64,000 nucleotides of DNA from a bacterium (GTDB taxonomy: Bacteria; Margulisbacteria; Marinamargulisbacteria; UBA817; JABISL01): NCBI GenBank assembly GCA_018700055.1, contig JABISL010000034.1, positions 1,560-65,559 of the forward strand, given 5' to 3'. Positions 4,794-58,505 of the stretch are shown here, piece after piece (the first letter of the stretch is position 1; every line of letters begins with the position of its first letter). The translations under genes were made by a program, and so were the position numbers. The notes beneath the pieces were generated by a model. That model did not search any database. It had not been told where the DNA came from and was given only the letters and a program-made list of their open reading frames with translations.

Positions 4794-4805
4794 GATTGTT
4801 CCTTT

Positions 4806-5723: not shown

Positions 5724-5727
5724 AATG

Positions 5728-5763
5728 GTCCTCACGGTAATTTTATATACTTATCGTGAGGAC
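5728..5763 (-). promoter_or_regulatory. Perfect 9-bp stem hairpin (GTCCTCACG-18 nt-CGTGAGGAC) ending 4 nt before the ATG. It sequesters the SD-like GAGGAC.
   Basis: Read directly: the inverted repeat gtcctcacg ... cgtgaggac. On the mRNA (minus) strand the 3-prime arm CGTGAGGAC is followed by CATT ATG. Confidence 0.5.
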
Positions 5764-5858
5764 GGAGGGTGGAATTTCAATTATTTAGTTTGAGCTTGAT
5801 AAGGGGATAGGGGTAGAGGTTATCTCACACACGAATAATGGTTTTGGGAAGATTGAGC

Positions 5859-15827: not shown

Positions 15828-16772
15828 ATGAAGTGGGAAAAATGGACCGGGGTATTGATGGTTGTGTTTGCAGTAGTGTTTTCACCAGCACTATTTGCGG
15901 AAGGTCCTGTTGTTTATGTTCTAAAGCATAAGTCTCTTTCTGTTTATAACGAGACAGAGGCGGCTGTGGTGGCGGATTTGAAATTGGACTACACGGTTGT
16001 AACAGCGAATGTCACTCTTGATACGATTAACTCGGTGTCGAGAGCGATTCGGAAGAAAAAGGCTGTGGCAGTCGTTGCCATTGGGACTAAGGCAACAGCA
16101 ATGATTAAGAAGAAGGTTACGCGTATCCCAATTCTTTTTTGTATGGCGTTGCGACCTGTTAAGACCGGTTTGGTTCCTTCGCTTAAACGGCCTGGTCATA
16201 TGATTACCGGAATTTCATTGGATATTCCGGTTGAAGTCCAGTTTAAACGTATTCGGAAACTTTTTCCTTGGATCAACAGAATCGGTGTTTTATACACTCC
16301 AAATCAAGATGAAGCGTTGATAGCGGCTGCCAAAAAATCAGCTAAACGATATGGGTTTAAGTTGTATATTAAGCCAATCCATTCGCAGAGTCAGATTCAA
16401 CCGCAGCTTAAGGATCTTTTTCAGAAACAAATTGAGCTGCTATGGGCCATTCCTGATCAAAAAATATATTCCAAACAAAACCTAGAATATATTCTTTTGT
16501 CCCTCAACCGGTTCAAAATTCCTTTTATGGGATTGTCTCGCGCCTATTTAAGTATGGGTGCCTTTTTCTCATTTGATCCAGATCCGAGTGATATAGGGAA
16601 AAGAACAGCCGCTCTAGTGAAGCGAGTGGATCAAAAAGGGGTGTCGCCAGGCAAAATATCTATAAAGGGCCCTAAAAAAATTAACTATTCTATCAATCAA
16701 CGTGTGATGAAGCGGTTTGGGTTTCATCCGCCACAAGAGACATTGAGAAATGCTAAAGAGGTCTTCCAATAA
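15828..16772 (+). CDS. periplasmic substrate-binding protein of the ABC_sub_bind (PF04392-like) family
   Basis: 314 aa with a signal peptide. The fold pattern resembles the uncharacterised ABC-type periplasmic components often found upstream of cyclase or kinase sensors. Its stop overlaps the downstream cyclase start (ATGA). Confidence 0.45.
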   Translation: MKWEKWTGVLMVVFAVVFSPALFAEGPVVYVLKHKSLSVYNETEAAVVADLKLDYTVVTANVTLDTINSVSRAIRKKKAVAVVAIGTKATAMIKKKVTRIPILFCMALRPVKTGLVPSLKRPGHMITGISLDIPVEVQFKRIRKLFPWINRIGVLYTPNQDEALIAAAKKSAKRYGFKLYIKPIHSQSQIQPQLKDLFQKQIELLWAIPDQKIYSKQNLEYILLSLNRFKIPFMGLSRAYLSMGAFFSFDPDPSDIGKRTAALVKRVDQKGVSPGKISIKGPKKINYSINQRVMKRFGFHPPQETLRNAKEVFQ

Positions 16773-37359: not shown

Positions 37360-37956
37360 TTAGATCAATGCGTCTTGAATGAGTATTTTGGCTTGTTGTA
37401 ACGCAATATGTCGATGCGATAAGGCGTTTTTTTCTTGGGAGCTCATTTGGGCAAACGTTCTGTCGTCGCCTTCAGGGATAAAAACAGCGTCATAGCCAAA
37501 TCCATTGTCTCCGACTAGATCGGGACTAATATGGCCGCGAATAATGCCAGATGTCGTTTGGATCGCGTTGTCCGGAAACCGAATGGCGATTACGCATTGA
37601 AACTGGGCATCACGATTCCCGGTGTGATGGAGCTCTTTCAGAAGTTTATGGCAGAGTTCTTCTTTGCTTGCGTTTTCACCTGCATACCGAGCGGAATAAA
37701 TGCCTGGTGCACCGTCTAGGATATCCACTTCTAATCCCGAGTCATCAGCAACAAGAATGGTGTTGGCTTTAAGGGAAAAAGCGGTGACTTTTTTTATTGC
37801 ATTTTCTTCAAATGTGAGTCCATCTTCAATGATAGTTACAGGGTTGGGATAAATGTCTTTGTAAGGTGAAACAGAGACGGGCAAATCGGATAAAAGTGAT
37901 GTCATTTCGTGACACTTATTTGCATTGTTTGTTGCTAATACGATTTGATGGGTCAT
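37360..37956 (-). CDS. rdgB: non-canonical purine NTP pyrophosphatase (RdgB/Ham1 family)
   Basis: 198 aa. It has the LATNNANKCHEM N-terminal motif and Ham1-like blocks. Confidence 0.8.
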   Translation of the reverse strand: MTHQIVLATNNANKCHEMTSLLSDLPVSVSPYKDIYPNPVTIIEDGLTFEENAIKKVTAFSLKANTILVADDSGLEVDILDGAPGIYSARYAGENASKEELCHKLLKELHHTGNRDAQFQCVIAIRFPDNAIQTTSGIIRGHISPDLVGDNGFGYDAVFIPEGDDRTFAQMSSQEKNALSHRHIALQQAKILIQDALI

Positions 37957-38001
37957 ACAGGTAGTCTATGATATAATTTTGGTGTTAATCAAGCGTATAT
38001 A

Positions 38002-38790
38002 TTGAGTAGTTTCTCAAATGCTATGAGGGGGTTGAAGAGGATGTTTATTAAAATCACGGTCTTAGTGATTGTTGTTTTTAGTTGGATAACGACGACTATT
38101 GTTGCGATGATGCCATCGTATGTTAAGCCTATTTGGCATGGTCCTCGATCGATAAAGACCGTAGCGCTAACCTTTGATGATGGACCGCATCCGGATTATT
38201 CGAATACGATTTTGGACGTGTTGAATACTCATGATGTGTCGGCAACCTTTTTTGTAGTGGGACGATCCGTTTTGGCCTACAAGACAATTGTCCAGCGTAT
38301 GGCTGCGGAAGGACATGAACTAGGGAATCACACATTTACTCATCAACGGTTGGATCAGCTAGCTCCGGCAGAAATGGTATTAGAGATGGATTCGATTAAT
38401 CGTTTAGTCAGGGAAGTAACTGGCCAGAATATGACTTTTTTTCGACCCCCAGGAGGTCGATATAACCGGTATGTTCTGGATCATCTAAAAACCACTTCAA
38501 TGCAAATGGTTCTGTGGGATATTAATACCGGGGATTATTATGTTCCTGTATCTGAGGAAGATCGATCGGATTACCCTTATGCTAAAAATACAGTCCAGAA
38601 AAAAGCCGCTCGTGTAGTTAAAGAGATATTAGAGTCCGTACAGTCGGGCAGTATTATTCTTTTGCATAATACGGATGGCGAGACGATTAAGGCGCTTCCT
38701 CAGATTATTACAGCGCTTAGGGGGCAAGGGTATCGATTTGTTACATTGTCTAAGATGCTAAAAGAGGGGTCCTTGGTGGTTAAACGATGA
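38002..38790 (+). CDS. polysaccharide deacetylase (NodB homology domain)
   Basis: 262 aa with an N-terminal TM and the NodB motifs TFDDGPHP and HTFTHQ. Confidence 0.75.
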   Translation: MSSFSNAMRGLKRMFIKITVLVIVVFSWITTTIVAMMPSYVKPIWHGPRSIKTVALTFDDGPHPDYSNTILDVLNTHDVSATFFVVGRSVLAYKTIVQRMAAEGHELGNHTFTHQRLDQLAPAEMVLEMDSINRLVREVTGQNMTFFRPPGGRYNRYVLDHLKTTSMQMVLWDINTGDYYVPVSEEDRSDYPYAKNTVQKKAARVVKEILESVQSGSIILLHNTDGETIKALPQIITALRGQGYRFVTLSKMLKEGSLVVKR

Positions 38791-39623
38791 CAAGGTTGTC
38801 TCAACTTGTAATGGATCAAGGGATTCAGACGGTTTTGGTGGATGCATCGGGAGTCTTGTATACGGATGATGGTGTTGTCCCAGGTGTTCCTGAGACTATT
38901 CAGTCGCTTAGAGATGCGGGTTGTTATGTAATAGTTGTGACTAACAATTCGGGGCACTCTCAGGCGATGATTGCGGATCGGTTAACTAGGTTTGGGATAC
39001 CAATAGACCCTCAAGATGTGATTTCATCAGGGTTGGGATTGTCAGAAGATGCGCAGTGTCGTCAAATTATTGAGGGGCGATCGGTTTTTGTTTATGGACG
39101 AGCGTCGTCTCATGGATACGTCACAATGGCTGGGGGGCAAATCGTTGATGAGGTTGGTGATAGTGAAGTGGTTGTGATGATGGCCTCACTCAAAGCGGAT
39201 AATCAGGCGGTTTATGAATCGGTTAGGGCGCATGTTATTGCAACTGGGGTTCCGGTTGTTTGTGCTAATCCGGATCAATATATTTGGAATCAAGAAGGGT
39301 TATATAAGGTTTGTGGCTACTATGCGACGCAATTGGAAAAAGAAACTTCGTGCTCAATGACATGGATTGGCAAACCTTTTTGCAATTTCTCTATGGTAGT
39401 ACACGATATATTAATGAGGCGGAATATTTCCGTTGATAATAATGTTCTTTTTATTGATGACAATATCCACAATGTAGATCGACTTCGGTCCGACCTGGGA
39501 ATCCTAGGCGGTTGTGTTAGTCTAACGGGCTTAATGAACCACTATGGAATGGATATTATACAGATTGGTCAGAATACGGATTATGTATTCGAGACATTGG
39601 CAGGGGAAATATCGACTAACTAG
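38787..39623 (+). CDS. HAD-superfamily class IIA-like hydrolase
   Basis: 278 aa. It has the N-terminal DASGVLY (motif I) in a HAD-IIA context. Its start overlaps the deacetylase stop (ATGA). Confidence 0.5.
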   Translation: MTRLSQLVMDQGIQTVLVDASGVLYTDDGVVPGVPETIQSLRDAGCYVIVVTNNSGHSQAMIADRLTRFGIPIDPQDVISSGLGLSEDAQCRQIIEGRSVFVYGRASSHGYVTMAGGQIVDEVGDSEVVVMMASLKADNQAVYESVRAHVIATGVPVVCANPDQYIWNQEGLYKVCGYYATQLEKETSCSMTWIGKPFCNFSMVVHDILMRRNISVDNNVLFIDDNIHNVDRLRSDLGILGGCVSLTGLMNHYGMDIIQIGQNTDYVFETLAGEISTN

Positions 39624-39658
39624 ATATGGGGACAGGTTAAATAACGTTAACGAGGCAA

Positions 39659-40318
39659 ATGATGAGTTTAGAAAATTATAAATTAACAGTATTAAATGAA
39701 ATGGGCGTATTGAAGAAAGTTTCTTCTTTTGTTCAAGAAACAGTTTTTAATTTAGGTTGTGTGAAATCGGCTTTTGATTCTCGACTACCTGTAGGGGAGT
39801 TTCCGATTAAGGGTTATGAAAACGATGACCCTAATGACGGGATATGTCGGTCTTCATTAACGTCCAATGCGGACTCAAGTGTATTCGGAGGTTACTCAGC
39901 GAAGTCTTCACCAGAGGGGTCTCCTGTATCGAGAGCGGGTCGAGTCATTAGTCTTTCTTCAGATGGAGGAACGGATGGAGACGCTTCGCCGGCTTTTCTT
40001 ACTGGACGAGAGAGTAAGGTTTCGATGCCCTTGAAAATTTCTGAGTATGGGGCGCAACAAACTATTTATCCAATAGTAGAGAATCCACCGATGATGAGGG
40101 CTAGCTCTTTACAAAATATAGCTAGTGAGCGACTACACTCTCCTGTAAAACAGCAATCTGGATCGTTTCCGAGAAGTTCTTTCCAGGGGATGTTTAAGCA
40201 GGGAATGTTAACTTCTCATGTTCCTCGTGCGAGTAATTTGAAAGAGGGGCCTTCAAAAGAGGCCTATGATAGAGCTTTGATTATAGGGTCGTCAAAATCA
40301 AGAGCTGCAAATATCTAA
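39659..40318 (+). CDS. hypothetical Ser/Pro-rich intrinsically disordered protein with SP motifs
   Basis: 219 aa. It has no signal peptide and is low-complexity S/P/G-rich (SSPEGSPVSRAGR, LHSPVKQQSGSFPRSSF). Confidence 0.4.
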   Translation: MMSLENYKLTVLNEMGVLKKVSSFVQETVFNLGCVKSAFDSRLPVGEFPIKGYENDDPNDGICRSSLTSNADSSVFGGYSAKSSPEGSPVSRAGRVISLSSDGGTDGDASPAFLTGRESKVSMPLKISEYGAQQTIYPIVENPPMMRASSLQNIASERLHSPVKQQSGSFPRSSFQGMFKQGMLTSHVPRASNLKEGPSKEAYDRALIIGSSKSRAANI

Positions 40319-40395
40319 AGCGTATAAGGCGATAATGTTGATAGAGGAGGGGATGATGAATAGAGTGTTGATGCTTTGTTTCATCTATATGGTTT

Positions 40396-43300
40396 ATGAA
40401 CATGTTTAATAAAGTGTTATTTAAAGTTTTGGCGGTTGTTTCTCGGGATGTTCATCAAACCAGCGCGGTTTTTGGGACGCTAACCGTTACAGAAAGAATG
40501 GAAACGGTTTTTTCTGATATGTTGAAGGTGATAGATGAGCAGTTTCCTGCGGATCTAACATTAGTACATACTGATGGTCCGGCTAGAGAGTCTCTTTCGG
40601 TCTCACCACCTTTGCCAAGGGCAGGGTCCCAGGATGGCCGTGAGTCTAAGATGTCGTCTCCTCTTCGAGCATATACTCGGACAATGACCCCGACAGATAT
40701 TCCTGATCGAAACGATGAGGTAAGTGAACCCTTTTCAGTTTTGAGTAATGTTCTTGATGAAATGAGCCAAAGCAACCTTCAAGTTGGCGATGAAATTGTT
40801 CCTCTGTCAGTGTTTTATATGTATTTGAGGATACTAGAAAGGGAGTTTGAGACAGCGGTTGTTTCTTATACTTCTGGAATTGGAGATTTCATTCAAGCAC
40901 TTCAGGATTATATGAGAGAGCATAATGCTAACCCGATAGGTGCGATTCACAACTTCCATCAGCATCTTTTGGGGGAAAGAACATTAGCGTCAGAATGGAT
41001 TGAGAAACACCAAATAGCAGGAGATGACAATGAAGGTGGGTGGGAATCTGAGCTAAAAAAAATATTTAAGCAAGCCAACAGTAGTATGGTTTCCGTTGGG
41101 GTTTCTTTCCAGAAAGATGCCAACTATTTTGATCGGAATTATACGGCTTTTCGTAAATATTGGGATTTAATGGAGCCAACTTATTCGATGGGCATGGGGA
41201 TGTCTCGGAACAATAAAAGACAGTACTTTTTGATGGCGGCTACATTTTCTCGTGTTTTAGCTCAAAGATTAGGGGATTTGTATTCAGATAGCCCCCTGCC
41301 AGAATTTAATTGGCGGAATGTTTTGTACGATAGTTTTATGAGTACCTTACCCGTATCCAAACCCGCGATTGGGCTAGATACGTTTATGAATGAGCTAATG
41401 AAGAAGCCAGAGTTGATAAAAAAAGAATCGTTTTTTGTTAATGGTGATCATTGCGATCTTTTAATTTTTGATAACCGAAAGAAAGGGTTGTTTAATGGGT
41501 TTGAGTCAGAAGCCTATGGGATGCTATGTTCGCAGTTTCATGAAGCATGGGCGCTGGCGCTTACTGAGCTAGGGATGGATCGTGTACGCCAAGTAACCAC
41601 CCCTTTTGGTGGTGGTTATATGGAGGCTGATTTTATCACTCTAGTTGCATGTAAACCGGGTGATAAATTCGATAGCCTGAAAGCATTTTTTACTAGTAAA
41701 TATTCAATTTCAGAGATTGTGTCGAGCGGGGATTTCGAAAAGAAATATCAAGGCGATATATTTATGGGAGGGTGTTATGTGCCGCCCAAAGATCAGGGGC
41801 TTCAAGTAGGAGAAATTGCGGCGTTCTTTACGTTAAAAGAAGGGTTGAACTGTGTAGCAAAGGATATCGTCATCACTCGGGACGGTAATACAGTTCCTTT
41901 GAAATATGATGATCTTGTCAGGGTTACTAATAGTACTAGAACCAATTCTTCAAAGGCGATAGGTGCACTAGAAAAGGTGGGGTTCGGATTAATGGGGCGT
42001 TTTCAAGAGTATGAGAAAAGGGCTGACGTTTTGATTGATGCGTTATCTAAAACAGATAAGGCGCTTGTGACAGAAATGTGTAATGCACATTTTTTACTGA
42101 ATAGAGAGGGTATGACAAACGATTATGGTCAGCCAGATTTACCAATGTACAACGAATATGATCACCCTGTGGTCAACACGAGAGACTTTTTTTGGGTCCC
42201 AGAAGTGTATCAGGAAAGTCAGCCTGTTATGGAAAAAATGGACGATTTGGACCGGTTGGTCTTGGCGATTCAAGCGGATTTTGATTCTCGAGCAGGGTCT
42301 ACAGAAGCGATTCAAATGGTGAGAAAAGAGATGTTGTCTCGAATAGATAGGTTAGGAGTATTTAAACAATATTTGATAGATAATGTTGAGAAACAAGACC
42401 GATTTTTTGAGTTTATGGCTAGGCAATGGGAAGTGTTTCAGGAAGAAGTTCCTGATGACTTTTCGACAGTTAGGAGACAATACTTTGATCATTGTCACCC
42501 GGCTAGATCAGATGAATATCGCCCGCCTAAGCAACTTGCTTGTTTTAATACGGGATTGGTTCGAGAGGCGTTGCCTCCGACATGGGATGTGGAGCAGTTT
42601 CGTCCGGATCTGTTAAAAAAGAATCGAACATTGGTGGCTTTTTTTATGTGCCTACGTCACCTAGGCGATTCTTTATATGTATCACATGACTTGGATCAGT
42701 CAAGACTGGGCAAGGCGATTAAAATGATTCGTGGGTTTCAAAAAATGGAGACAAATCTTGAAACCAAGCTTCAAGCAACGATTTACCCGAAAGTTACGCG
42801 GATATTTGGTAGTCAAGAAGAGGTGTCTGGCGGAGAGTTATTTGATGCTGAAGGCCGAGGAATTACCAAAGAAAAAATTAATGAAATGTTTTTAGAAATG
42901 AAAGGACTATTGGCCTTTGTTCCGAAAGCTCAATGGCGACTACTTCAGAAAAATCAAATTGTAGTGGATTTTTATGGGACAATGAATATAATGCAAAGTC
43001 TTGTAGCGTGTTTGGACTGTTTGGAGCAAGTTCAGAATGAGGGTGTGAGCCCTTCCTTTTTTGATTCTTTGAAAAGTTTGATAAAGCTTGTTTCTGACTT
43101 AGAAAAAATGCTTTCTAGGGCTCAATCTGGGGATGTGTTATTTGATGGAGAAGAGAAACCTCTTCAATGGATGGGTGTTTTGTCCTTGTCTAAGCAAATG
43201 TATTTGCAAACAGCTATTGGCGATACGTTATCACCGCTGTATGGGGTATTGACGAGCCAAATTCGTCAGTCGCTATTGGCGCATCCAGAGTCTTTTTTGG

Positions 43301-43749
43301 ACAACTATAAAAAAATGGCTGAAGTTAGTATTGCTGCGTCACTGTTGTTAGGCGATTTTAGTATTTCAGAAGGATTTGAGAAGCATTTTTCAGCGGTATT
43401 GCTTAAAATGAACATGATGTTGATTCAGACTCCGATAGATGGAAAGGGTTTAAAGCATCTAACGCGTGATATTCAGTTTGCGCAGAAACGAAATACTTAT
43501 TCTGAAGTGGAGAAGGAGTGCTGGCGTGATTTGGAACGATATATTAGTTTAACTGTTTCAGATGCGAGGTCTATTGATAGAGTCTCCGAAGAAAAGGTTT
43601 CAGTTGCTAGGCAAGAAGCCCTCAATGATATCTGGCAGAGCCTACAAGGCAGTGTGTTAGGAGCGGAAGATAGACCCCCGCTGCCGCCTGAAAAAAAAAT
43701 GTCACGGCGAGGGACAAAGAGCTTGTTTAAAGTGGCTTCGAACTCTTAA
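40396..43749 (+). CDS. large (1117 aa) hypothetical protein with no recognisable domains; candidate orphan / effector-like protein
   Basis: Long uninterrupted ORF. It has an S/P-rich N-terminus with SP/TP motifs and a Pro-rich C-terminus (RPPLPPEKK). It has no signal peptide and no TM. Confidence 0.5.
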   Translation: MNMFNKVLFKVLAVVSRDVHQTSAVFGTLTVTERMETVFSDMLKVIDEQFPADLTLVHTDGPARESLSVSPPLPRAGSQDGRESKMSSPLRAYTRTMTPTDIPDRNDEVSEPFSVLSNVLDEMSQSNLQVGDEIVPLSVFYMYLRILEREFETAVVSYTSGIGDFIQALQDYMREHNANPIGAIHNFHQHLLGERTLASEWIEKHQIAGDDNEGGWESELKKIFKQANSSMVSVGVSFQKDANYFDRNYTAFRKYWDLMEPTYSMGMGMSRNNKRQYFLMAATFSRVLAQRLGDLYSDSPLPEFNWRNVLYDSFMSTLPVSKPAIGLDTFMNELMKKPELIKKESFFVNGDHCDLLIFDNRKKGLFNGFESEAYGMLCSQFHEAWALALTELGMDRVRQVTTPFGGGYMEADFITLVACKPGDKFDSLKAFFTSKYSISEIVSSGDFEKKYQGDIFMGGCYVPPKDQGLQVGEIAAFFTLKEGLNCVAKDIVITRDGNTVPLKYDDLVRVTNSTRTNSSKAIGALEKVGFGLMGRFQEYEKRADVLIDALSKTDKALVTEMCNAHFLLNREGMTNDYGQPDLPMYNEYDHPVVNTRDFFWVPEVYQESQPVMEKMDDLDRLVLAIQADFDSRAGSTEAIQMVRKEMLSRIDRLGVFKQYLIDNVEKQDRFFEFMARQWEVFQEEVPDDFSTVRRQYFDHCHPARSDEYRPPKQLACFNTGLVREALPPTWDVEQFRPDLLKKNRTLVAFFMCLRHLGDSLYVSHDLDQSRLGKAIKMIRGFQKMETNLETKLQATIYPKVTRIFGSQEEVSGGELFDAEGRGITKEKINEMFLEMKGLLAFVPKAQWRLLQKNQIVVDFYGTMNIMQSLVACLDCLEQVQNEGVSPSFFDSLKSLIKLVSDLEKMLSRAQSGDVLFDGEEKPLQWMGVLSLSKQMYLQTAIGDTLSPLYGVLTSQIRQSLLAHPESFLDNYKKMAEVSIAASLLLGDFSISEGFEKHFSAVLLKMNMMLIQTPIDGKGLKHLTRDIQFAQKRNTYSEVEKECWRDLERYISLTVSDARSIDRVSEEKVSVARQEALNDIWQSLQGSVLGAEDRPPLPPEKKMSRRGTKSLFKVASNS

Positions 43750-43758
43750 TTCATCACA

Positions 43759-46719
43759 ATGATTATTCTTTATTCTATTATTATTTGTCTAAATGTAGGG
43801 TTGGGGTTTTTAGCGTTATTTAAAAATAATAATCAAAAAGGACTCGTTCAAACGAGAGCGGCTTTTTTTAATCTTTCTTGTTTTTGTGCGCTTTGGGTTC
43901 TGTCAGTCTGTATGGTGAAATATGGGGCTAGTCCAATTTTTTGGATCAAAATGGCCTTTTTTTCGGGGATAGGGTTTGTCTTTAGTTTTTTGTTGATGAT
44001 ACTCAGATACCCTACTCATATAAACCTTCCTAAATGGGTTTGGGGGTTAGTGATTGGGGGGGCAGTCTTGTTATGCGGGCTGAGTTTTACGCCTCTAATT
44101 GTTCAAGGGTTTGATGCAAGTGCACACCAGGTAAACTATGGCCCTTTATATAGGGTGGTGGTCTATTATATTTCGGCGTTAATTTTGACTTCTGGATTTC
44201 TGGCTATTCATCAGTATAGAAAAGGAAGTGGTTTGGATCGATTGCGTGTCTTTTATTTGATATCAGGGATGTTGTTTTCTTTTGTTGGTATCTATATTAC
44301 CAATATTCTTCTTCCAAATTTGTTGCATACAAACAAAAGTAGTGCCTATGGACCTTTGTTTTTGACTGTATTTTTGGCGACGACAGTTTACTCTATTCTG
44401 AAGCATCGTCTTATGGAAATTGATCTTGTGATCAAAAAAGGCGTGTTTTATTTTCTGCTTACTACATGTTTGTCCCTCCCGGTTTTATTTTTGTTTATGG
44501 TAACAAGTATTCTTACAGCAGATGAATCTGGACTCACGCTCTTTTTTTGTTTTGGGTTTGTAGCCATAAGTATTGTTCTTTTGTATCCCCATCTTATTGA
44601 AATTATTGACCATATTACAGAACGGTTGTTTTTTCGGAAGCCAACGGATTACCAAGCATTAACGACGGATATTAGTGGTCGTCTTTCTAGAGTTATCACC
44701 GAGACGCAATTGGCAGATGTTCTGGTTCGAGTAATGACGGATCGATTAAAATTGTATGGTGCAAGTTTATATGTTTTAAGGGGAACGGGAGCGTTTTCTC
44801 GGGTGGAAGGGGTAGGGTCTATGAAAAATATTCCTGAGGTATTACCTGAGGACCATCCCGTGATTCAATGGTTTAAATATCGCCCTTGTAGTGTTTACCC
44901 TAATGAACCTGTTTTTGATGTTAGTGATATTCCACAAAAAGAGTTGTTTACACAAGAAATGTCTTTTTTTATGGTAAACGGTGTTGGTGTAGGGATTCCT
45001 TTTATGTATGAGGGCCGTTTGATGGGGTTTTTGTTATTAACTGAAAAATTGTCTCAGAAAGCGTTTACTCAGAACGATACATTGTTTTTTGAGATGGTTT
45101 CGAATCAAGCTGTTACTGTGCTACAAAATATGGTGAGTATCGCTGAAGTAAAGCAACAAATATCGACATTAAATGACTTGAATGCGTTTGCGGTAAGGGT
45201 TTCTGAAACGTTGGAGTCGGATGCTATTTTTGAGGTTTTTTCTACGGATGCTAAAAAGTTTTTGGGATTTGATTGGGTGATATGTAGTGACTCAACCAAG
45301 CTTTTAGGCGATGAAAGTGGCGCGTCTTGGTTTGATAGGGACAGTGATTCAAAAAAAATAAAGCCTTTTCCATGTAGTGCCTATAAAGAGTATGTTCTTC
45401 AGTTAGATTCCGAGTATGGTCCGTTTGTACTGTCTTCGGATATGCATCCTGAGCTGACAAAATATAAGGACTATTTGACGGAGCAATTGGGGAACCATAG
45501 AGTGATCGGGATTCCTTTTTTACATAGTGGAAAGCTGATGGGGATAGCATTGGGAGGATTATCCAATGTTCGATCAGAATTGTCTCCTCGTAAGATGATG
45601 ATGTTGGGGACCTTGGCTCAACAAACGGCTGTGGCATTATATAACGCCCATCTCTATGAAGAAATGCGTCAAATGCAGTCTTATCATGAGGCTATACTAG
45701 GTAACATGACGAGTGGTGTGGTGGTTTTAGATGACCAGAACTGTGTGGCTTTGGTAAATCAAGCGTTTGCGACAAGTATTTCAATGCAGAGAGAGGCGAT
45801 GGTACATGTTTCGATTGATGATCTTATTAAAAAGAACAGAGCTTTGATAGCGTTGACGGAGAACCGAGGGCCTCGGCAGCCGGTAGAAATTATCTTGAAA
45901 AATGAAACAGGGATGCATGACTACTCCCTAAGTGTGGAAGAAATCCCGTTTGGGGAGGTTGTATATCGAGTAGGTGTTCTTAGTGATTTGACGTCGATTA
46001 AAAAGCTTCAGAAACAAATGATTCATGCTGATCGATTGTCATCGTTAGGGACCATGGCTGCGGGGATTGCCCATGAAATTCGAAATCCGCTTTCAGCTGT
46101 TTTGTTATGTACTGAAATGCTTCAAACCAAATGGGAGGATAACGGGTTTACGAAGACGTATGTGGATACAGTGGATACACAAGTCACTCGTATTAATACG
46201 CTCTGTCAGTCACTGCTACGCTTGGGAAAACCTCAAAAGCCGAGGTTGGACGAAGTATCACTTCGCCAAGTGTTTCAAGAAATGGAGGATTTGTTAGGGG
46301 TTAAGTTTCGGGAGAAAAGTGTCTCTTTTGAGAGTCGTGTAACGCAAGAGTGTTCAGTATATGCAGACCGAAATCAATTGGTTCAAGTATTAATAAATAT
46401 TATTTTGAATGCATTGGATGCAGTTCCTGATACGGGTGGCGTTATTTGGTTTTCTTATGAGTCGAGTGGGGAGATTGCAGTTATCAGGATTCATGATAAT
46501 GGAAAAGGGATTCCTTCTGATGATATTTCTAAGGTATTTGATCCGTTCTTTACTAACAAAGAGCAAGGGACGGGGCTTGGATTGTCGATTGTTCATCAAA
46601 TTATTCAAGATCATAGAGGTACAATATCGGTTCAATCTAGTCCTGATCAGGGGACAGAGTTTGTTATATCGATTCCCTTATTTGCCATTAGACGAGTGCC
46701 TAAGGAATTAATGGTATGA
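43759..46719 (+). CDS. sensor histidine kinase with an N-terminal multi-TM (HK 7TM-like) domain plus GAF, PAS, HisKA and HATPase_c domains; paralog 1
   Basis: 986 aa with about 8-9 N-terminal TM segments. It has the H-box SLGTMAAGIAHEIRNPL and ATP-lid motifs DNGKGIP and GTGLGLSIVHQII. Confidence 0.8.
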   Translation: MIILYSIIICLNVGLGFLALFKNNNQKGLVQTRAAFFNLSCFCALWVLSVCMVKYGASPIFWIKMAFFSGIGFVFSFLLMILRYPTHINLPKWVWGLVIGGAVLLCGLSFTPLIVQGFDASAHQVNYGPLYRVVVYYISALILTSGFLAIHQYRKGSGLDRLRVFYLISGMLFSFVGIYITNILLPNLLHTNKSSAYGPLFLTVFLATTVYSILKHRLMEIDLVIKKGVFYFLLTTCLSLPVLFLFMVTSILTADESGLTLFFCFGFVAISIVLLYPHLIEIIDHITERLFFRKPTDYQALTTDISGRLSRVITETQLADVLVRVMTDRLKLYGASLYVLRGTGAFSRVEGVGSMKNIPEVLPEDHPVIQWFKYRPCSVYPNEPVFDVSDIPQKELFTQEMSFFMVNGVGVGIPFMYEGRLMGFLLLTEKLSQKAFTQNDTLFFEMVSNQAVTVLQNMVSIAEVKQQISTLNDLNAFAVRVSETLESDAIFEVFSTDAKKFLGFDWVICSDSTKLLGDESGASWFDRDSDSKKIKPFPCSAYKEYVLQLDSEYGPFVLSSDMHPELTKYKDYLTEQLGNHRVIGIPFLHSGKLMGIALGGLSNVRSELSPRKMMMLGTLAQQTAVALYNAHLYEEMRQMQSYHEAILGNMTSGVVVLDDQNCVALVNQAFATSISMQREAMVHVSIDDLIKKNRALIALTENRGPRQPVEIILKNETGMHDYSLSVEEIPFGEVVYRVGVLSDLTSIKKLQKQMIHADRLSSLGTMAAGIAHEIRNPLSAVLLCTEMLQTKWEDNGFTKTYVDTVDTQVTRINTLCQSLLRLGKPQKPRLDEVSLRQVFQEMEDLLGVKFREKSVSFESRVTQECSVYADRNQLVQVLINIILNALDAVPDTGGVIWFSYESSGEIAVIRIHDNGKGIPSDDISKVFDPFFTNKEQGTGLGLSIVHQIIQDHRGTISVQSSPDQGTEFVISIPLFAIRRVPKELMV

Positions 46720-49655
46720 GGTGGGTTTATGTTCTTTTGGTTTTTTTGACCTTACTAATCACTTCATTTCGGGTAATATTTCATGCTCGACCTAGCAGTC
46801 GTTGGTTTTTTTCGTTATTTGGGTTTTCTACTATATTGTGGACAGCGTCTACATATTTGATGATTTATATGGAAACAGCCGCTTTGTTGTGGACCCGAAT
46901 TACCTTTGTTGGGCCTGTAATTTTTATTGTAGCGCTTAACTATTTTGTGCATGATTACCCTGCGCCTTTGTCGATGTCACGATGGGTGAAGTGGAGTCTT
47001 TTGAGCTTAGGAATCGTACAGTGTATATCTGTTTTTTTTCCTTGGGTTGTTTTGTCAGTTGGCCCGTATCCAGAGATTGTTTATGGCCCTGGATTTTCTG
47101 TATATACGGGGCTATCTCTTTTAGGCCTTGGAAGAGTGTTTCGTATTCTGATTCGGCAGCAAAAAGAACTGATTGGATATGAGCGCCTTTGTGCACGTTA
47201 CTTTATTTATGCCTTGATAGGCTTGGTGGTAGTTCCAATTATTTCGAACCTATTGTTACCGTTGTGTGGCATTACGGATTGGACCTGGTTGGGGATTTGT
47301 TCGTTAATGATTTTTCCTGTCATTCTTAGTATTCCTGTATTGGGGTATAACCGAGTGCAATTGATCTCGATATTGCAGGAGATGATGTATTATACATTTT
47401 TATCTATAGCAGTAGGGTCTATCTATGCTGGGACGACGTATATGGTTCGATTGATACCTGGGTTTGGCAAGTCTAGTAGTATGGGACTAATACTCTTGGT
47501 TTCTATAGGCGTTATGCTATTAATTCCTAAGTTGCAGTTGTTTTTTCGATATGTGGTTAATTTGATTTTTTTCCGCCAACATTTTGACTATCAAAAAACG
47601 TTAAGGGAACTTAGTGACAGGTTGCATTCAATGATTCATTTGGATGGCATTGCAACCACGCTGACTTCGGCATTGCCAGTTGCCTTAAAAGTGGATCAAG
47701 TTCGCTTGTTATTGCGAGTTCCGGATGGACGATATGTTCAACATGGACATTATCTAACAGATGGTCATGAATTAAGTGAGACGGACGCTATTTCGAAGCA
47801 GTTGAAAAAGAGCTCTAATGGATTGGAGTATGACGCTATTCAACTTGAAAGAGATTTTTGTGAAGGGGATAAAAAAAGTGAGATGACTCGCCTTTTGGCC
47901 CGCATGTCTGAGTTGGGATATAAACTTTGTTATCCACTTATTATTTCAGGTCAATTAGAGGGCATATTATGCATTGGGGCTAAGCGAATGTTTGTTCCTT
48001 TTAATCGGGATGATGTCGTTCTTGTTGAAAGTATAGTGAACCATACGGTTTTGGCGATTCAAAATGCGCATATCTTCCATGAATTGGAAGAAAATAGAGA
48101 TACATTACAAGCGTTGAATCGGTTTTGTGCTCAGATGAGTACATCGGTGTCTGTTACGAAGCTTTGTGATGATGTGTCGGATGTGCTGGCCTATTTTTTA
48201 GGGCTTAAGAATACGATTGTTTATCGTGAACATTATCAGACGAGAGAGATGGAGCTAGTGTCGATTACAGGGGATGGATTATTTCAAAATGGCAGATGGG
48301 ATTTAGAGGTAGATGATATATTACTTCATTGGCAGGCAAGTAGATCGAGCATGGCGCCTTTTGTTTATACGGATGACTTAAACCATCCCTATAGGAAAGG
48401 GCTTAAACGAGTGATGGATATGTTTGGTGCAAGTCAAATGTTGGTGATTCCATTGTTAGTAGGTGAGCGTGTCATTGGTTGTGTTTTTGGGCTATCCAAG
48501 ACTTCTATCGACTATATTGCGATGAGTAGAAAACAGGTCTTGGGGACCATCGCTCAAGAGTGTGCGGTGGCTCTTAATAACGTTCGTTTATATGACTATA
48601 TGACTCAGCTCAAAAACTATCATGAGTCTATCTTACATAACATGGGAACGGGTGTTTTGGTTTGTGATGAGCAAGGGCAAATAGTCAATTGTAATAAGTT
48701 GGCAGGGGGTCTTTTTGGACAGTATCCAAGTGATTTGTTGGGTCGGCAGCTATCGGAATTAGCAGTTAAGGTCCCGTCACTTTCGATTATTTTGGAAACG
48801 TTTGATACTGGAAATAAGATTGAGGAAATAATGTTGAAAATAGACTCGAATTCCTTACACTATTCATTAATGACGAGTACAATTACTGTTTCTGATAAAC
48901 GATTTGTGATTGCTGTCTTTCATGATATAAATCCCATTAAACAGTTGCAGCGGCAAGTAGAGCAGGTGGATCGTTTGGCTTCGTTAGGGACAATGGCGGC
49001 GGGTGTAGCGCACGAAATTAGAAATCCATTGGTATCTGTAAAAACATTTTCTCAGCTTATTCCATCACGAAAGAATGACCCTAGTTTTCGAGAAGAGTTT
49101 GCGAAAATTGTTATCCCACAAGTGGAACGGATTAATGATATGTGCCAATCTCTTTTGGATCTTGGGCGCCCTAGGAAGCCTGAATTGGGCGCTCTATTTC
49201 TTAAACCAGTTCTTTCTAAATTAGCGACGATTACTCAGGTAGAAGCGAGTTCTGCTAATGTGACCTTAACAATTTATTGCGATGAGGACGTTCAGATAAT
49301 GGCCGATTTGTCACAAATTTCTCAGGTGTTTCTTAACTTACTAATGAATGCCTATCAATCGATGCCCGATGAGGGTGGAGAGGTTGTGATTCAGATTGAT
49401 ACATCTAACGCAGAGTTTGTGTCTATTCGGGTTTCAGATAATGGCTGTGGAATGACTTCAGATCAAATGGATCAAATATTTGATCCATTTTTTACTCTTA
49501 AAGACCAAGGAACGGGGTTGGGGCTATCGGTGGTTCATCAGATATTAAAAGATCATGGCGGAACGATTGAAGCTGAGTCTGAAGAAGGAAAAGGAACTTG
49601 TTTTACACTACGTTTGGCGGTTGTTAAAAAATCGGATCTATTAACCTTGGCTTAA
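46716..49655 (+). CDS. sensor histidine kinase, paralog 2 (same architecture); its start overlaps the paralog 1 stop (ATGA)
   Basis: 979 aa with multi-TM, GAF and PAS regions. It has the H-box SLGTMAAGVAHEIRNPL and HATPase motifs DNGCGMT and GTGLGLSVVHQIL. Confidence 0.8.
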   Translation: MRWVYVLLVFLTLLITSFRVIFHARPSSRWFFSLFGFSTILWTASTYLMIYMETAALLWTRITFVGPVIFIVALNYFVHDYPAPLSMSRWVKWSLLSLGIVQCISVFFPWVVLSVGPYPEIVYGPGFSVYTGLSLLGLGRVFRILIRQQKELIGYERLCARYFIYALIGLVVVPIISNLLLPLCGITDWTWLGICSLMIFPVILSIPVLGYNRVQLISILQEMMYYTFLSIAVGSIYAGTTYMVRLIPGFGKSSSMGLILLVSIGVMLLIPKLQLFFRYVVNLIFFRQHFDYQKTLRELSDRLHSMIHLDGIATTLTSALPVALKVDQVRLLLRVPDGRYVQHGHYLTDGHELSETDAISKQLKKSSNGLEYDAIQLERDFCEGDKKSEMTRLLARMSELGYKLCYPLIISGQLEGILCIGAKRMFVPFNRDDVVLVESIVNHTVLAIQNAHIFHELEENRDTLQALNRFCAQMSTSVSVTKLCDDVSDVLAYFLGLKNTIVYREHYQTREMELVSITGDGLFQNGRWDLEVDDILLHWQASRSSMAPFVYTDDLNHPYRKGLKRVMDMFGASQMLVIPLLVGERVIGCVFGLSKTSIDYIAMSRKQVLGTIAQECAVALNNVRLYDYMTQLKNYHESILHNMGTGVLVCDEQGQIVNCNKLAGGLFGQYPSDLLGRQLSELAVKVPSLSIILETFDTGNKIEEIMLKIDSNSLHYSLMTSTITVSDKRFVIAVFHDINPIKQLQRQVEQVDRLASLGTMAAGVAHEIRNPLVSVKTFSQLIPSRKNDPSFREEFAKIVIPQVERINDMCQSLLDLGRPRKPELGALFLKPVLSKLATITQVEASSANVTLTIYCDEDVQIMADLSQISQVFLNLLMNAYQSMPDEGGEVVIQIDTSNAEFVSIRVSDNGCGMTSDQMDQIFDPFFTLKDQGTGLGLSVVHQILKDHGGTIEAESEEGKGTCFTLRLAVVKKSDLLTLA

Positions 49656-49680
49656 ACTTTTCGCTTAGTGATCGATAATA

Positions 49681-51876
49681 GTGAGTATGAAAATACTCTC
49701 TTCTAAATCTCGAAACTTTGGTAGTGAAATGTCTATGGGCGTGTTGTCTGCTTTGAGTATGGTTTTGGCGGGTGTTTCATTTTCAGCATTGATATTTACA
49801 GGGCCCTTATTGCCCTACTTGCCGGTGGGTTTAAGTTTGATATTGGTAGGTTGGGGTGTTGCGACTCTTTATAGCACCTTTCGTACCAAGGTTCCGACTC
49901 AATTAATGGGACCTCAAGATAAACCTATAGTGATATTAGCCAGTATGGTTATTTCGTCATCTCTAGGACTTTATACCTTTCAGGAACATGCCCTTTTTTC
50001 TACGATTATGACGATTGTGGTCGCCACTAACCTCATATTTGGATTGGCGATGATTGTGGTAAGTCGGTATCGTCTCAGTCGTATGGCTGAGTATATCCCC
50101 TATCCCGTTGTTGGTGGATTTCTAGCTGGTACGGGCTACTACTTTTTGGATGCAGCGATCTATGTTTTAACTGGGATGAAGTTGTCTATTGTAACGATTC
50201 CTAACTTGCTTTCCTGGCCGACAGTGTTCTTATGGGGCCCTTCCTTGGTCATGGGGTTAATCATGTTTGTTTTGATTCGTCGTCTAAAAAAATCTTGGGT
50301 TATGCAAGCGTGTGTTGCGGTTTTGTGGCTCGGTTTCTTTTTGGTTTCTTTTTATATGGGGTTTGATATGGAGACCCTTCGGGAAGCGGGTTTTTTCTTT
50401 CAGCCCATTTCAAATACATCCTTTTCTTTTTGGATACAGTCATACCATTTTGATTCGATTCATTGGCTATTCATTCGTGATCATCTCGGAGACATTATTG
50501 CTTTATTATTATTATCATTTTTGGGAGCATTGTTGAATCTGACGGGGTTAGAACTGGGCTTAAGACAAACGGTTGATACGGATCATGAACTTCGAGTGGT
50601 GGGTGAGGTTAATTTACTTATGACCTTCTTCGGGGGGTTACTTAGTTATACCCAAATTGGACCGACGCTTCTTTATTCTAGAGCTGGAGCTTCGACTCGT
50701 GTGCTGGGGATAATTACTGCGATTGGTTGTTTTCTTTGTGGGTTGTTTGGGACTGGGGTTATCGCATTTATTCCTAAGATGGTGTTAGGGGCACTTATCT
50801 TGGTATTTGCTATGGAATTCCTTTATACATGGATTTTTGCGATTAGGCGTCATATTACCAAGATTGAGTATGGTGTCATCTTAATGATTCTTGCGGCGAT
50901 TGTTGTTGTAGGCTTTTTGGAAGGGATCTTATTAGGTCTTTGCGTATCGATCGTAATGTTTGTTGTTAATTATAGTCGGATTAACGTGGTTAGATCGGTA
51001 TTAAGTGGCGTAGAAACGCGTAGTAATGTGGTGAGAGATGTTGATCAAAAAAGGTATTTGGAGTCGTTGGGTGCATCTGTAAATATTCTTATGTTACATG
51101 GGTATGTGTTTTTTGGATCTGCTACCCATTTAATGGGGACGATTAAAGCCTGTTTTTCAGGCAAGGGAAGACAGAAGGTAAAGTATATTATTTTGGATTT
51201 TCGCTTGGTTCATGGCATGGATTCGTCTTCAATATTTGTGTTTGGTAAGTTGTCACATTTTATTCATAAACATAATGTGCATTTGGTACTTACAGGCCTA
51301 TCGGATACGATTCGTCATGCCTTGTACGTCCATGATTTTTTTGTAGATGAGCGGTGTCATTACTTCAAAAACTTTGACTTAGGTATGGAATGGGTAGAAA
51401 CCCAGATATTATTTGGTCGCAAAACAGAAAAGAACGATCGCCCCACAGCCAAGGGGTACTTGATGGAAGTATTGCATGACTCTGAAAAAGCAGACGCTCT
51501 TCTGGGGTATCTAACGCCGGGGACGTTTCAACGAGGGGATGCCATTATTCAAGAAGGGGACCAAGGCGATCAAGTATTCTTTTTAGTACAAGGAAAGGTC
51601 TCTGTCTATATGCAAGGCTCTGGGGACAGGCCGATTCGACTACGTTCTTTTTCAGCGGGGACGTTGGTGGGCGAAATGAGTCATTACTTGAGTTATGAGC
51701 GCTCAGCTAGTGTAATTGCTGATACGGATTGTAAAGGATATGTGATTTCTCATGATGCCTTGATGCGTCTTTTTCAAGAAAGACCGAAAGTAGCAGCGGC
51801 TTTTCATGAACTATGTGCGCGCCTCATGGCAGAGCGCATCTATCATATGAACAAGCAGCTCAAATCTCTTTTTTAA
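49681..51876 (+). CDS. SulP-family anion transporter fused to a STAS domain and a C-terminal cyclic-nucleotide-binding domain
   Basis: 731 aa with a polytopic SulP core. It has a STAS-like segment (YIILDFRLVHGMDSSSI) and a cNMP-binding domain (GDQVFFLVQGKVSV...FSAGTLVGEMS). Confidence 0.75.
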   Translation: MSMKILSSKSRNFGSEMSMGVLSALSMVLAGVSFSALIFTGPLLPYLPVGLSLILVGWGVATLYSTFRTKVPTQLMGPQDKPIVILASMVISSSLGLYTFQEHALFSTIMTIVVATNLIFGLAMIVVSRYRLSRMAEYIPYPVVGGFLAGTGYYFLDAAIYVLTGMKLSIVTIPNLLSWPTVFLWGPSLVMGLIMFVLIRRLKKSWVMQACVAVLWLGFFLVSFYMGFDMETLREAGFFFQPISNTSFSFWIQSYHFDSIHWLFIRDHLGDIIALLLLSFLGALLNLTGLELGLRQTVDTDHELRVVGEVNLLMTFFGGLLSYTQIGPTLLYSRAGASTRVLGIITAIGCFLCGLFGTGVIAFIPKMVLGALILVFAMEFLYTWIFAIRRHITKIEYGVILMILAAIVVVGFLEGILLGLCVSIVMFVVNYSRINVVRSVLSGVETRSNVVRDVDQKRYLESLGASVNILMLHGYVFFGSATHLMGTIKACFSGKGRQKVKYIILDFRLVHGMDSSSIFVFGKLSHFIHKHNVHLVLTGLSDTIRHALYVHDFFVDERCHYFKNFDLGMEWVETQILFGRKTEKNDRPTAKGYLMEVLHDSEKADALLGYLTPGTFQRGDAIIQEGDQGDQVFFLVQGKVSVYMQGSGDRPIRLRSFSAGTLVGEMSHYLSYERSASVIADTDCKGYVISHDALMRLFQERPKVAAAFHELCARLMAERIYHMNKQLKSLF

Positions 51877-52721
51877 GGGTTGTTAATACCGCCGATGGAT
51901 TCAAATAGTTTTTCGTGAGATTTGATGAGCTTTTTGGCAGTGGTAGTTACTCCTTCGTGTATAGGCGTCATCATAAAAAGGGCACCAACGCCTGGCGGTT
52001 CATTGGATCGTTCCATATAGCCTTGCGCTACGAAGTATTGAGGGTCTTCTAGGATAGTGGCTTTTTCAGGGTCCATGATATAGAAAAAGGTACCTTCAAA
52101 TGTCCATAAACCTTGTGTGTTTTCAAACCCAGTAATTTTGAGACGATCGACATATTCTCCATTTATGTCATAGATTTTTCCATTTCGTTTAATTAACGGA
52201 TTATCTGTTGTGAGATAGATGTAGCCATTTTCTCCTAATATTGGATAGCTATGCGCTAGCGTAATGAGCATGCCATCCCGACTAAGTGTGCAGCGTCCAT
52301 CGGAGACAAAGCTCCATGTGCCATCGGGAAGCTCTACTGTAAAAAAATTGGTGCGTCCGCTGATGTAGAGGTCCAATGCACGATTAGTATGTGTGGCTCC
52401 TTCTTTGGCCCAATCCATGAATTGTATGGGGACTAGATCCTTGTTTTCGTTGTAATACATTGCGATTTTTTGGCGTTTGTATCCCGGCATGGTGGCATTT
52501 ACGGTAGAGAGCAAGTAGTGTTTGAAGTAGTTGTCATACCCCGACATGCTTTGCCCGATGACCTTGAGATAATGTGGGTAAGTGGTGGTGTTATCAGACA
52601 AGTCTCGTTGTACGTAAGTATTATCTGGCCACGTTTTGGCCATAGGTGCGGGAACGCCGATGTTGGCGATAGCATGTGAAGCTATGGCGATTAGGGTTAG
52701 AAAAGTTAATAGACGACTCAT
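51873..52721 (-). CDS. secreted hypothetical protein
   Basis: 282 aa with a signal peptide (LTFLTLIAIASHAIA). I recognise no motifs. Its start overlaps the upstream gene stop. Confidence 0.35.
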   Translation of the reverse strand: MSRLLTFLTLIAIASHAIANIGVPAPMAKTWPDNTYVQRDLSDNTTTYPHYLKVIGQSMSGYDNYFKHYLLSTVNATMPGYKRQKIAMYYNENKDLVPIQFMDWAKEGATHTNRALDLYISGRTNFFTVELPDGTWSFVSDGRCTLSRDGMLITLAHSYPILGENGYIYLTTDNPLIKRNGKIYDINGEYVDRLKITGFENTQGLWTFEGTFFYIMDPEKATILEDPQYFVAQGYMERSNEPPGVGALFMMTPIHEGVTTTAKKLIKSHEKLFESIGGINNP

Positions 52722-53218
52722 AGCCCCATTATACCAGTCAGTTTACGGTTTTTTCGTTTGGATGCTCGATACTCCCAAGGTGGGAGGGGTTTTTGGGATT
52801 TCCATAATCCTTGTCGAGTAGATTTGGCAATAGATTCCAGAGACTGGCATGATTTGATAAGGGGTTGTTTGGGGTAGCACCAAGCATGACCATTTTTGAT
52901 CCAAAGTGTATTAATAGAAGCATTTTCATGGACAATGTCTGCTAGGTAGCGACCGTAAATATCTTTTTTGGCGATAAAGGCCGTTACTTCTTGATTGAGT
53001 AGTCTTTTTTGTAGTGCTTTTTTGGCGGTTTTGCCATAAGGTTGTTTCCATTCAGGGGAGTCGATGTGATTGAGTCGGATCTCATATGTTTGGTTCTGAT
53101 GAGTTATTACTAAGGAATCGCCGTCGATTACCCGTGTAACGTTGCCTGTAACAGTCCATGCATGGATAGGCGTGGTTAGAAATAGAGATGCCACGATGAA
53201 ATAGAAGAACGGCTTCAT
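52718..53218 (-). CDS. secreted staphylococcal-nuclease-like (thermonuclease / SNase fold) protein
   Basis: 166 aa with a signal peptide. It has the SNase blocks VIDGDSLVI, IRLNHIDSPE, YGRYLADIV and NGHAW. Confidence 0.6.
   Translation of the reverse strand: MKPFFYFIVASLFLTTPIHAWTVTGNVTRVIDGDSLVITHQNQTYEIRLNHIDSPEWKQPYGKTAKKALQKRLLNQEVTAFIAKKDIYGRYLADIVHENASINTLWIKNGHAWCYPKQPLIKSCQSLESIAKSTRQGLWKSQKPLPPWEYRASKRKNRKLTGIMGL

Positions 53219-56213: not shown

Positions 56214-58505
<2,292 letters not shown>

Follow-up and report, generated by a model that had tools for sequence, protein, structure and literature searches.

A co-oriented seven-gene array in an uncultured diderm bacterium: one undescribed system or a mosaic of modules

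Seven genes packed on one strand of a bacterial chromosome, among them a polysaccharide deacetylase, two tandem sensor histidine kinases and an anion transporter with a cyclic-nucleotide-binding tail, raise the question of whether they form a single system or separate units that lie side by side. The array was analysed within a 64-kb stretch of DNA, here called the window, from an uncultured, sparsely sampled diderm. On balance, we favour the reading that this co-oriented chromosomal run is a mosaic of separate modules. Five of the seven genes are ordinary family members, and two are orphans found in this species only. The value of the array is modest; it neither overturns current understanding nor opens a long-standing question.

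The earlier note on this DNA had described seven plus-strand genes with gaps of -4 to +77 nt, and the ORF list of the window gives exactly these coordinates: the ORFs are packed within 38002-51876 and are separated, in gene order, by -4, +35, +77, +9, -4 and +25 nt (Table 1). Two of three overlaps had been read as ATGA; both internal ones (NodB/HAD and HK1/HK2) have this sequence, and the third, at 51873-51876, is a convergent TTAA stop/stop overlap between the SulP ORF and a minus-strand 282-aa ORF. None of the gaps contains a terminator-like hairpin. A promoter-like hexamer pair precedes the array and is listed as a candidate only; promoter-like sites are no commoner than by chance (40 versus 38.4 in shuffled sequence). 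When the gaps were searched for regulatory RNA with Rfam, a tRNA-Pro gene at 34139 was returned and nothing else. Co-transcription of at least some sub-blocks, with the ATGA junctions of NodB/HAD and HK1/HK2, is plausible from the sequence, and any operon boundaries drawn within the array are putative.

Table 1. Coordinates of the array genes and of nearby sequence signals in the window
Feature	Coordinates	Strand	Remarks
Promoter-like hexamers TTGATG-16-TATGAT	37945..37972	+	45-nt rdgB/NodB divergent region; candidate only
CE4/NodB-type polysaccharide or peptidoglycan deacetylase (NodB)	38002..38790	+	N-terminal membrane anchor or signal; Pfam Polysacc_deac_1
HAD-IIA (NagD-like) hydrolase (HAD)	38787..39623	+	Start overlaps NodB stop, ATGA
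219-aa orphan	39659..40318	+	Ser-rich (16%), pI 8.8, no transmembrane segment
18-codon upstream ORF	40353..40409	+	Strong Shine-Dalgarno sequence; stops 14 nt inside 1117-aa ORF (sequence reading)
1117-aa singleton orphan	40396..43749	+	pI 5.35, predicted mostly helical, no transmembrane segment
HK1 histidine kinase	43759..46719	+	HisKA_7TM, GAF, GAF, PAS, HisKA, HATPase_c
HK2 histidine kinase, HK1 paralog	46716..49655	+	Start overlaps HK1 stop, ATGA
SulP/SLC26 anion transporter (SulP)	49681..51876	+	STAS and C-terminal cNMP-binding domain; Pfam

The outer modules: deacetylase, hydrolase and transporter

The first gene of the array encodes a member of the CE4 family. Its Polysacc_deac_1 domain (PF01522, E 6.6e-38) carries the Asp-Asp and His-His metal/catalytic motifs of the family, seen as TFDDGP and HELGNH, and an RPPGG motif, and a hydrophobic segment spans residues 18-36. 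The true start is probably ATG 38024 or 38041, and JGI calls a product of 249 aa. The full CE4 domain and the catalytic motifs are shared with PgdA, PdaA, PdaB and NodB, and the top PDB matches are 7y51 (1e-39) and PgdA, 2c1g (7e-33). In contrast to these named enzymes, the array deacetylase lies under every NCBIfam equivalog cut-off, its top matches PdaB, PdaA and PgdA included. The second gene encodes a HAD hydrolase with the Hydrolase_6 signature (Pfam, E 6.1e-19); in NCBIfam its HAD-SF-IIA score of 69 bits falls short of the cut-off, 100. With NagD, PH1952 and the 2hx1 sugar phosphatase it shares this signature, and its nucleophile Asp aligns with theirs, as do the Thr of motif II and the Lys of motif III. 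Its motif I, DASGV, retains the nucleophile, but Asp+2 is replaced by Ser, so that it resembles 2hx1 (DAFGV, likewise without Asp+2) and differs from NagD (DIDGV); because of this replacement, phosphatase activity is not to be assumed. Together, a membrane-anchored extracytoplasmic deacetylase translationally coupled to a cytoplasmic NagD-like hydrolase would form one module, which may act in the modification of amino sugars or of an envelope glycan.

At the other end of the array, the SulP ORF, for which ATG 49687 is the likely start, encodes about 12 hydrophobic segments and the domain succession of SulP/SLC26 transporters, a Sulfate_transp membrane domain (PF00916, E 1.1e-21) followed by STAS (PF01740, E 6.4e-11). 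The cyclic-nucleotide-binding domain ascribed to this protein in the earlier note is borne out (PF00027, E 2.4e-17): it contains a phosphate-binding cassette, GEM...RSAS (GEMSHYLSYERSAS), with the Glu and Arg that place it among cNMP domains by sequence, and it matches the structures of PKG, PKA, CRP and HCN in the PDB. The same three-domain architecture occurs in at least 995 database proteins at about 32% identity. The array protein has the domain order of this subfamily and a similar length (727-749 aa), but is only about 32% identical to its nearest member. Compared with the BicA, DauA and SLC26Dg class, it scores far under the NCBIfam cut-offs for sulP, DauA and BicA. A literature search found no characterised SulP-STAS-cNMP protein. 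The array adds a further divergent member to a widespread, uncharacterised family. Anion transport by this module may respond to cAMP or cGMP through the cytoplasmic STAS-cNMP tail. The HAMP-containing class III adenylate cyclase and its PF04392-type partner, to which the earlier note had drawn attention, are indeed encoded in the window, at 15828-18280, 31 kb away from the array. A defence system was also considered and rejected, as the PADLOC matches come only from the generic cNMP domain.

Two orphan proteins restricted to one species

The third and fourth genes, which would form a further module, encode two proteins, probably cytoplasmic, and translation of the larger one is probably coupled to that of the kinases that follow it. 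The earlier note had seen no recognisable domains in either, and Pfam and NCBIfam searches agree. The 219-aa protein, which is probably largely disordered, also has no match in PHROG or PADLOC and is the sole member of its 90% cluster. A GAGG Shine-Dalgarno sequence lies 5' of its start, and its in-frame codon log-odds is 0.136, with all other frames negative. The 1117-aa protein matched itself alone among 5.8 billion proteins in a word-indexed search and among 1.84 billion representatives in an exhaustive search with phmmer. It is a large protein from a genuinely coding gene, and the set of representatives offers no detectable homolog of it. No PDB entry matched it at E 10 or below, PADLOC and a viral contig scan were empty, and a PHROG search gave a single, insignificant match (E 0.22). 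AlphaFold models were unusable, with pLDDT values of 33 for the full length and 39 for residues 601-1090. The protein has no internal repeats, and its low-complexity stretches cover approximately residues 50-110 and the last 32 residues. Its ORF lacks a Shine-Dalgarno sequence and has a codon log-odds of 0.21, even along the gene. Read from the sequence, the 18-codon ORF upstream is a possible coupling leader. Both orphans are coding, with native in-frame codon usage, and on the evidence of the searches both are species-restricted.

Neither orphan has a signal peptide. Their termini had been called eukaryote-like and rich in SP and TP; these dipeptides are not enriched (8 versus 5.6 expected and 4 versus 2.7 expected), although both proteins do carry S-, P- and K-rich low-complexity stretches. 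A common origin of the two was rejected: the shared motif GRESK[VM]SxPL[KR] is marginal (BLAST E 0.14), and its score was reached by 6 of 500 shuffles. No paralogs of the orphans were found among the other unannotated proteins of the window. Further P/S/T-rich orphans are encoded at 4368-6371.

The tandem kinases

HK1 and HK2 are sensor histidine kinases, with a DHp domain carrying the phospho-acceptor His (HisKA, E 7e-13 and 6e-11) and a HATPase_c domain (E about 6e-27). The H-box and the N, G1, F and G2 boxes read as intact in both; HEIRNPL, DNGxG, FDPFFT and GTGLGLS occur in each, and the strict N-box pattern fits HK1 alone. The earlier reading of the two as paralogs with the same domain order holds (BLASTP, 28% identity over approximately 957 residues, E 4e-105). 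Their description as 7TM-GAF-PAS kinases stands in part: Pfam reports HisKA_7TM, GAF, PAS, HisKA and HATPase_c in HK1 and GAF, GAF_2, PAS, HisKA and HATPase_c in HK2, which stays under the HisKA_7TM threshold, though its membrane region aligns with that of HK1, and each kinase has two GAF domains, not one. Binding of cNMP by these GAF domains was rejected, since both sequences, read by eye, lack F-x3-D-E of the NKFDE signature. No HK1 ortholog was found in the database, where the top match covers 23% of the query at 31% identity, and metagenome scans with HK2 gave no relatives. With this array, a 7TM-GAF-GAF-PAS kinase pair is on record for a lineage barely sampled by public data.

The kinases had been called orphans, and no receiver or Hpt domain is present in the 64 kb. 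Pfam detected none in window ORFs of at least 120 aa lacking prior annotation, the absence in five ORFs at 30.5-37.4 kb resting on precomputed Pfam labels, and phmmer, run on all six frames with four receiver sequences and one Hpt sequence as queries, gave nothing better than E 0.33. The top NCBIfam matches are AtoS, ZraS and NtrB, the partners of NtrC-family regulators, with 267 and 295 bits for AtoS, in a match that spans PAS, HisKA and HATPase, and 182 and 200 bits for ZraS (HK1 and HK2, respectively). Unlike these proteins, the array kinases score under the equivalog cut-offs, combine a multi-pass membrane region with a two-GAF sensor and have no adjoining NtrC-type regulator. A second likeness is to PrsK (TIGR02916) of the PEP-CTERM/exosortase system, with which HK1 shares the PF16927 7TM N-terminus followed by GAF and the HisKA/HATPase_c core, and a deacetylase gene lies near the kinases as it does in exosortase exopolysaccharide loci. 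However, HK1 and HK2 reach only 125 and 133 bits, well short of the cut-off of 300, in matches confined to the kinase core; they also carry an additional GAF and a PAS domain and are some 300 aa longer. Pfam found no PrsR, exosortase or PEP-CTERM family in the window ORFs, and the array deacetylase scores 54 bits against the cut-off of 276 for the XrtA-system enzyme. On both counts, the sub-cut-off kinase scores and the absence of these families from the window, the pair falls outside PrsK. We hypothesize that the kinases form a module of anciently duplicated membrane sensors, which would use GAF-GAF-PAS input and autophosphorylate on the histidine of HEIRNPL. Because their core is AtoS/ZraS/NtrB-like, their phosphate acceptors are probably response regulators of the NtrC type from other loci of the genome.

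Separate modules, one circuit or an acquired island

The proposal that the array is one undescribed system is not supported: no relative with the array is known from the word search, phmmer, or the GTDB and metagenome scans, the homologs of its genes lie in unrelated contexts and the cyclase is distant. A narrower version, to which we give a smaller, though appreciable, chance than to the mosaic, is a single signalling operon. In it, HK1 and HK2 would have the 1117-aa protein, and perhaps the 219-aa protein too, as a substrate, scaffold or accessory partner, and the SulP-cNMP transporter would belong to the same input/output circuit. The tight spacing of the genes, with HK1 starting 9 nt past the 1117-aa stop without a Shine-Dalgarno sequence, two ATGA overlaps and no hairpins, fits a single transcript, so that a functional linkage may exist; the gap before SulP is also short (25 nt), a cognate response regulator is absent from the window, and in distant HisKA_7TM kinases, too, a large upstream gene overlaps the kinase start. 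Set against this, no conserved copy of the array was found, and the 1117-aa protein has no homologs and does not resemble the proteins encoded upstream of other 7TM kinases. Orphan kinases are common among bacteria. The three distinct contexts of SulP-STAS-cNMP homologs that were examined contain no kinase, NodB or HAD gene nearby, in agreement with tblastn, but at about 32% identity they are distant and say little about this lineage. The neighbours of distant HisKA_7TM-GAF kinases are likewise unrelated. A GTDB scan anchored on RelA reached at most 47% identity, with neighbours that do not match, and metagenome scans with HAD gave no relatives. The earlier note had expected its case to weaken if orthologs proved to be scattered, and it does so slightly: SulP and kinase homologs are scattered, but those examined are distant. 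More specifically, the tandem kinases could have a cytoplasmic partner invented in this lineage, the 1117-aa singleton alone or together with the 219-aa protein, which would be translated in lock-step with HK1 and replace the response regulator as a non-canonical output or scaffold, with a cNMP-gated SulP in the same circuit. We regard this as very improbable; if the orphans did turn out to be partners of the kinases, they would show a two-component kinase connected to a protein of recent evolutionary origin.

The mosaic of modules also has to be weighed against horizontal acquisition. A signalling or effector island, with the orphans as secreted, eukaryote-targeting cargo, was suggested by the Pro/Ser low-complexity stretches in both proteins, by the P/S/T-rich orphans elsewhere in the window and by the tRNA-Pro gene 4 kb upstream of the array. 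This reading is disfavoured and in our judgement very improbable: the housekeeping genes of the window span the GC, GC3 and codon log-odds values of all seven genes, the array has no flanking or direct repeats, Pfam scans found no integrase or transposase, and secretion-system genes are absent from the 64 kb. The array therefore lacks the marks of a genomic island, BCCP, relA and rdgB separate it from the tRNA gene, and neither the dipeptide counts nor the lack of signal peptides fits secreted cargo. That the two orphan ORFs are instead non-functional, as chance, decaying or mis-assembled sequence, would agree with the lack of homologs and of a confident fold and with the missing Shine-Dalgarno sequence of the larger one, and yet this appears the remotest of the readings. 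An open run of 1117 codons in DNA of 41% GC cannot be due to chance, and the in-frame log-odds of 0.21 and 0.14 stand beside 0.23 +/- 0.06 for reference genes, the five other frames being negative. In addition, identical sequence was independently assembled from several samples; the DNA of the 219-aa gene recurs in three others at 99.9-100% identity, which is too uniform for dN/dS.

Array organization: one unit or a mosaic of modules

The seven plus-strand ORFs of the array lie exactly where the earlier note had placed them, and their domain content is confirmed by Pfam and NCBIfam (see the table). Five of the genes belong, as new members, to known families, and the other two are orphans specific to the lineage. 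The earlier note had read this arrangement as a dedicated, undescribed system; its observation stands and its interpretation is partly supported, the claim of an undescribed system having adjacency as its sole basis.

Features of the array and of its surroundings
Feature	Position	Strand	Remark
CE4/NodB deacetylase		+	array member; Pfam, NCBIfam
HAD-IIA hydrolase		+	array member; Pfam, NCBIfam
219-aa protein	39659-40318	+	array member; zero family matches in Pfam, NCBIfam
18-codon upstream ORF (MMNRVLMLCFIYMVYEHV*)	40353-40409	+	preceded by strong Shine-Dalgarno GGAGGGG
1117-aa protein	40396-43749	+	array member; zero family matches in Pfam, NCBIfam
Histidine kinase HK1	43759-46719	+	array member; Pfam, NCBIfam
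Histidine kinase HK2	46716-49655	+	array member; Pfam, NCBIfam
SulP-STAS-cNMP_binding transporter		+	array member; Pfam, NCBIfam
Motif GRESK[VM]SxPL[KR]	40004-40036		in 219-aa protein
Motif GRESK[VM]SxPL[KR]	40636-40668		in 1117-aa protein
PF04392 protein and HAMP class III cyclase	15828-18280	+	one-base overlap at 16772
ORFs of 141, 309 and 170 aa	4368-6371	-	zero Pfam matches
282-aa orphan	51873-53218	-	orphan convergent with SulP; span given for the orphan and the staphylococcal-nuclease homolog together
Isocitrate dehydrogenase	19694-21166	-	
Isocitrate dehydrogenase	56259-58505	+	

The arguments for functional linkage come solely from spacing. The junctions measure, in order, -4 (ATGA), +35, +77, +9, -4 (ATGA) and +25 nt, and one system is favoured by the two ATGA overlaps, by the lack of terminator-like hairpins within any gap of the array and by the start of HK1, which follows the 1117-aa ORF by 9 nt and has no Shine-Dalgarno sequence in front. 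The 1117-aa ORF has none either; the 18-codon ORF upstream, whose own is strong, ends 14 nt inside it and may be a translational-coupling leader. However, the remaining evidence is either silent or runs counter to a dedicated system. The SulP-STAS-cNMP architecture is common (at least 995 matches, approximately 32% identity), and kinase, NodB or HAD neighbours were found in none of three distinct contexts, namely an abundant marine 727-aa clade (read three times) and the distant loci L085 and L086. Distant HisKA_7TM-GAF kinases have other neighbours, acyltransferase/methyltransferase fusions to which the 1117-aa protein is unrelated. The composition of the array is unexceptional, and neither flanking repeats nor integrase or secretion genes were found. 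Its PADLOC matches trace to the generic cNMP domain only, and orphan kinases are common among bacteria. We consider that the array is most likely a mosaic of modules.

Enzymes, kinases and transporter

The anchored CE4 enzyme has intact TFDDGP, HELGNH and RPPGG motifs. Motif I of the NagD-like HAD protein (residues 19-23, window 38841-38855) reads DASGV, in contrast to DIDGV in NagD, the Asp+2 general acid/base being replaced by Ser; the solved homolog PDB 2hx1 (DAFGV) likewise lacks Asp+2. The two enzymes, read as coupled, would probably act together on envelope amino-sugars.

HK1 and HK2 are indeed paralogs over their full length (28% identical, E 4e-105), each combining a multi-pass membrane region (approximately 270 residues) with two GAF domains, one PAS domain and a HisKA/HATPase_c core that is intact. 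The HisKA_7TM threshold is reached by HK1 and not by HK2, whose membrane region aligns with that of HK1. Both are predicted to detect membrane or cytoplasmic cues via their 7TM, GAF and PAS modules, to autophosphorylate on the histidine of HEIRNPL and, because the kinase core is AtoS/ZraS/NtrB-like, probably to signal to NtrC-type regulators encoded elsewhere. The reported absence of receiver and Hpt domains from the 64-kb window was upheld by Pfam on the remaining ORFs of at least 120 aa (precomputed labels for five ORFs at 30.5-37.4 kb) and by a six-frame search that used four receiver sequences and a single Hpt sequence as queries; such a regulator-free window is unremarkable. Among 5.8 billion clusters, the best match to HK1 was 31% identical, in the kinase core. 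In two distant lineages (L083, 8286-13488; L081, 5451-12931), a HisKA_7TM-GAF kinase is preceded by an Acyl_transf_2/methyltransferase fusion protein, which may be a conserved pairing; a 4-nt overlap joins the pair in L083, and the fusion of the Nitrospirales contig includes PilZ.

Since it keeps the Glu and Arg of the cNMP phosphate-binding cassette, the SulP protein is probably an anion carrier modulated by cyclic nucleotides. The HAMP class III cyclase and PF04392 partner described earlier are real but lie 31 kb away, and their one-base overlap suggests a cyclase sensor dependent on the binding protein, which is periplasmic. The abundant 727-728-aa SulP-STAS-cNMP clade (L084, L087, L088, L089) has a constant neighbourhood across metagenome contigs from different samples, including LVIVD-repeat, PD40/Tricorn-like, FMN_bind and TonB-receptor genes.

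The two orphan proteins

Both orphans are real genes: their in-frame codon log-odds (0.21 for the 1117-aa and 0.14 for the 219-aa protein; mean 0.23 +/- 0.06 for 22 Pfam-supported window genes) accompany strongly negative values in all other frames, and GC and GC3 are typical. The statement that they have no recognisable domains agrees with the family searches. A word-indexed search with the 1117-aa protein recovered that protein alone, as did phmmer run exhaustively against 1.84 billion cluster representatives; it had no matches in the PDB at E 10 or below, none in PADLOC, a single insignificant one in PHROG (E 0.22) and no relatives in a viral contig scan. Two single-sequence AlphaFold runs gave pLDDT values of 33 and 39. 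Hydrophobic segments are absent from both orphans, as are the P-loop, HExxH and comparable simple catalytic motifs, and we read both as cytoplasmic proteins. Their low-complexity stretches are rich in Ser, Pro and Lys; the description 'SP/TP-rich' was not borne out when counts were compared with expectation. The motif common to both is marginal (BLAST E 0.14; score reached by 6 of 500 shuffles), and its two sites have no DNA similarity. The 1117-aa protein is probably co-expressed with the kinases, and we regard an orphan acting as a non-canonical kinase partner as very improbable.

Source lineage and other features of the window

The exact array proteins were located on a single 168-kb contig of JGI metagenome 3300072015 and in a single NCBI MAG (locus tags HOH87_), and short contigs in three other assemblies are 99.9-100% identical in DNA. 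The adjoining RelA/SpoT reaches at best 47% identity among the best 80 loci listed from GTDB species representatives, and metagenome scans returned no relatives of HAD and HK2; the source lineage looks isolated. Porin, TamB-like and heptosyltransferase genes in the window point to a diderm cell.

Downstream of the array, the palindromic TTAA forms a stop/stop overlap between SulP and the 282-aa orphan, which has a signal-peptide-like N-terminus and a staphylococcal-nuclease homolog directly upstream on the minus strand. The three adjacent minus-strand ORFs, with Pro/Ser/Thr-rich stretches, are an apparent second orphan cluster of the same genome. The two isocitrate dehydrogenases differ, one belonging to the Iso_dh type and bearing the bacterial C-terminal domain, the other being a monomeric IDH. 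Plus-strand GC skew is positive in all 2-kb bins of window 1-64000 (+0.09 to +0.29), irrespective of gene strand, a strand asymmetry of unusual strength.
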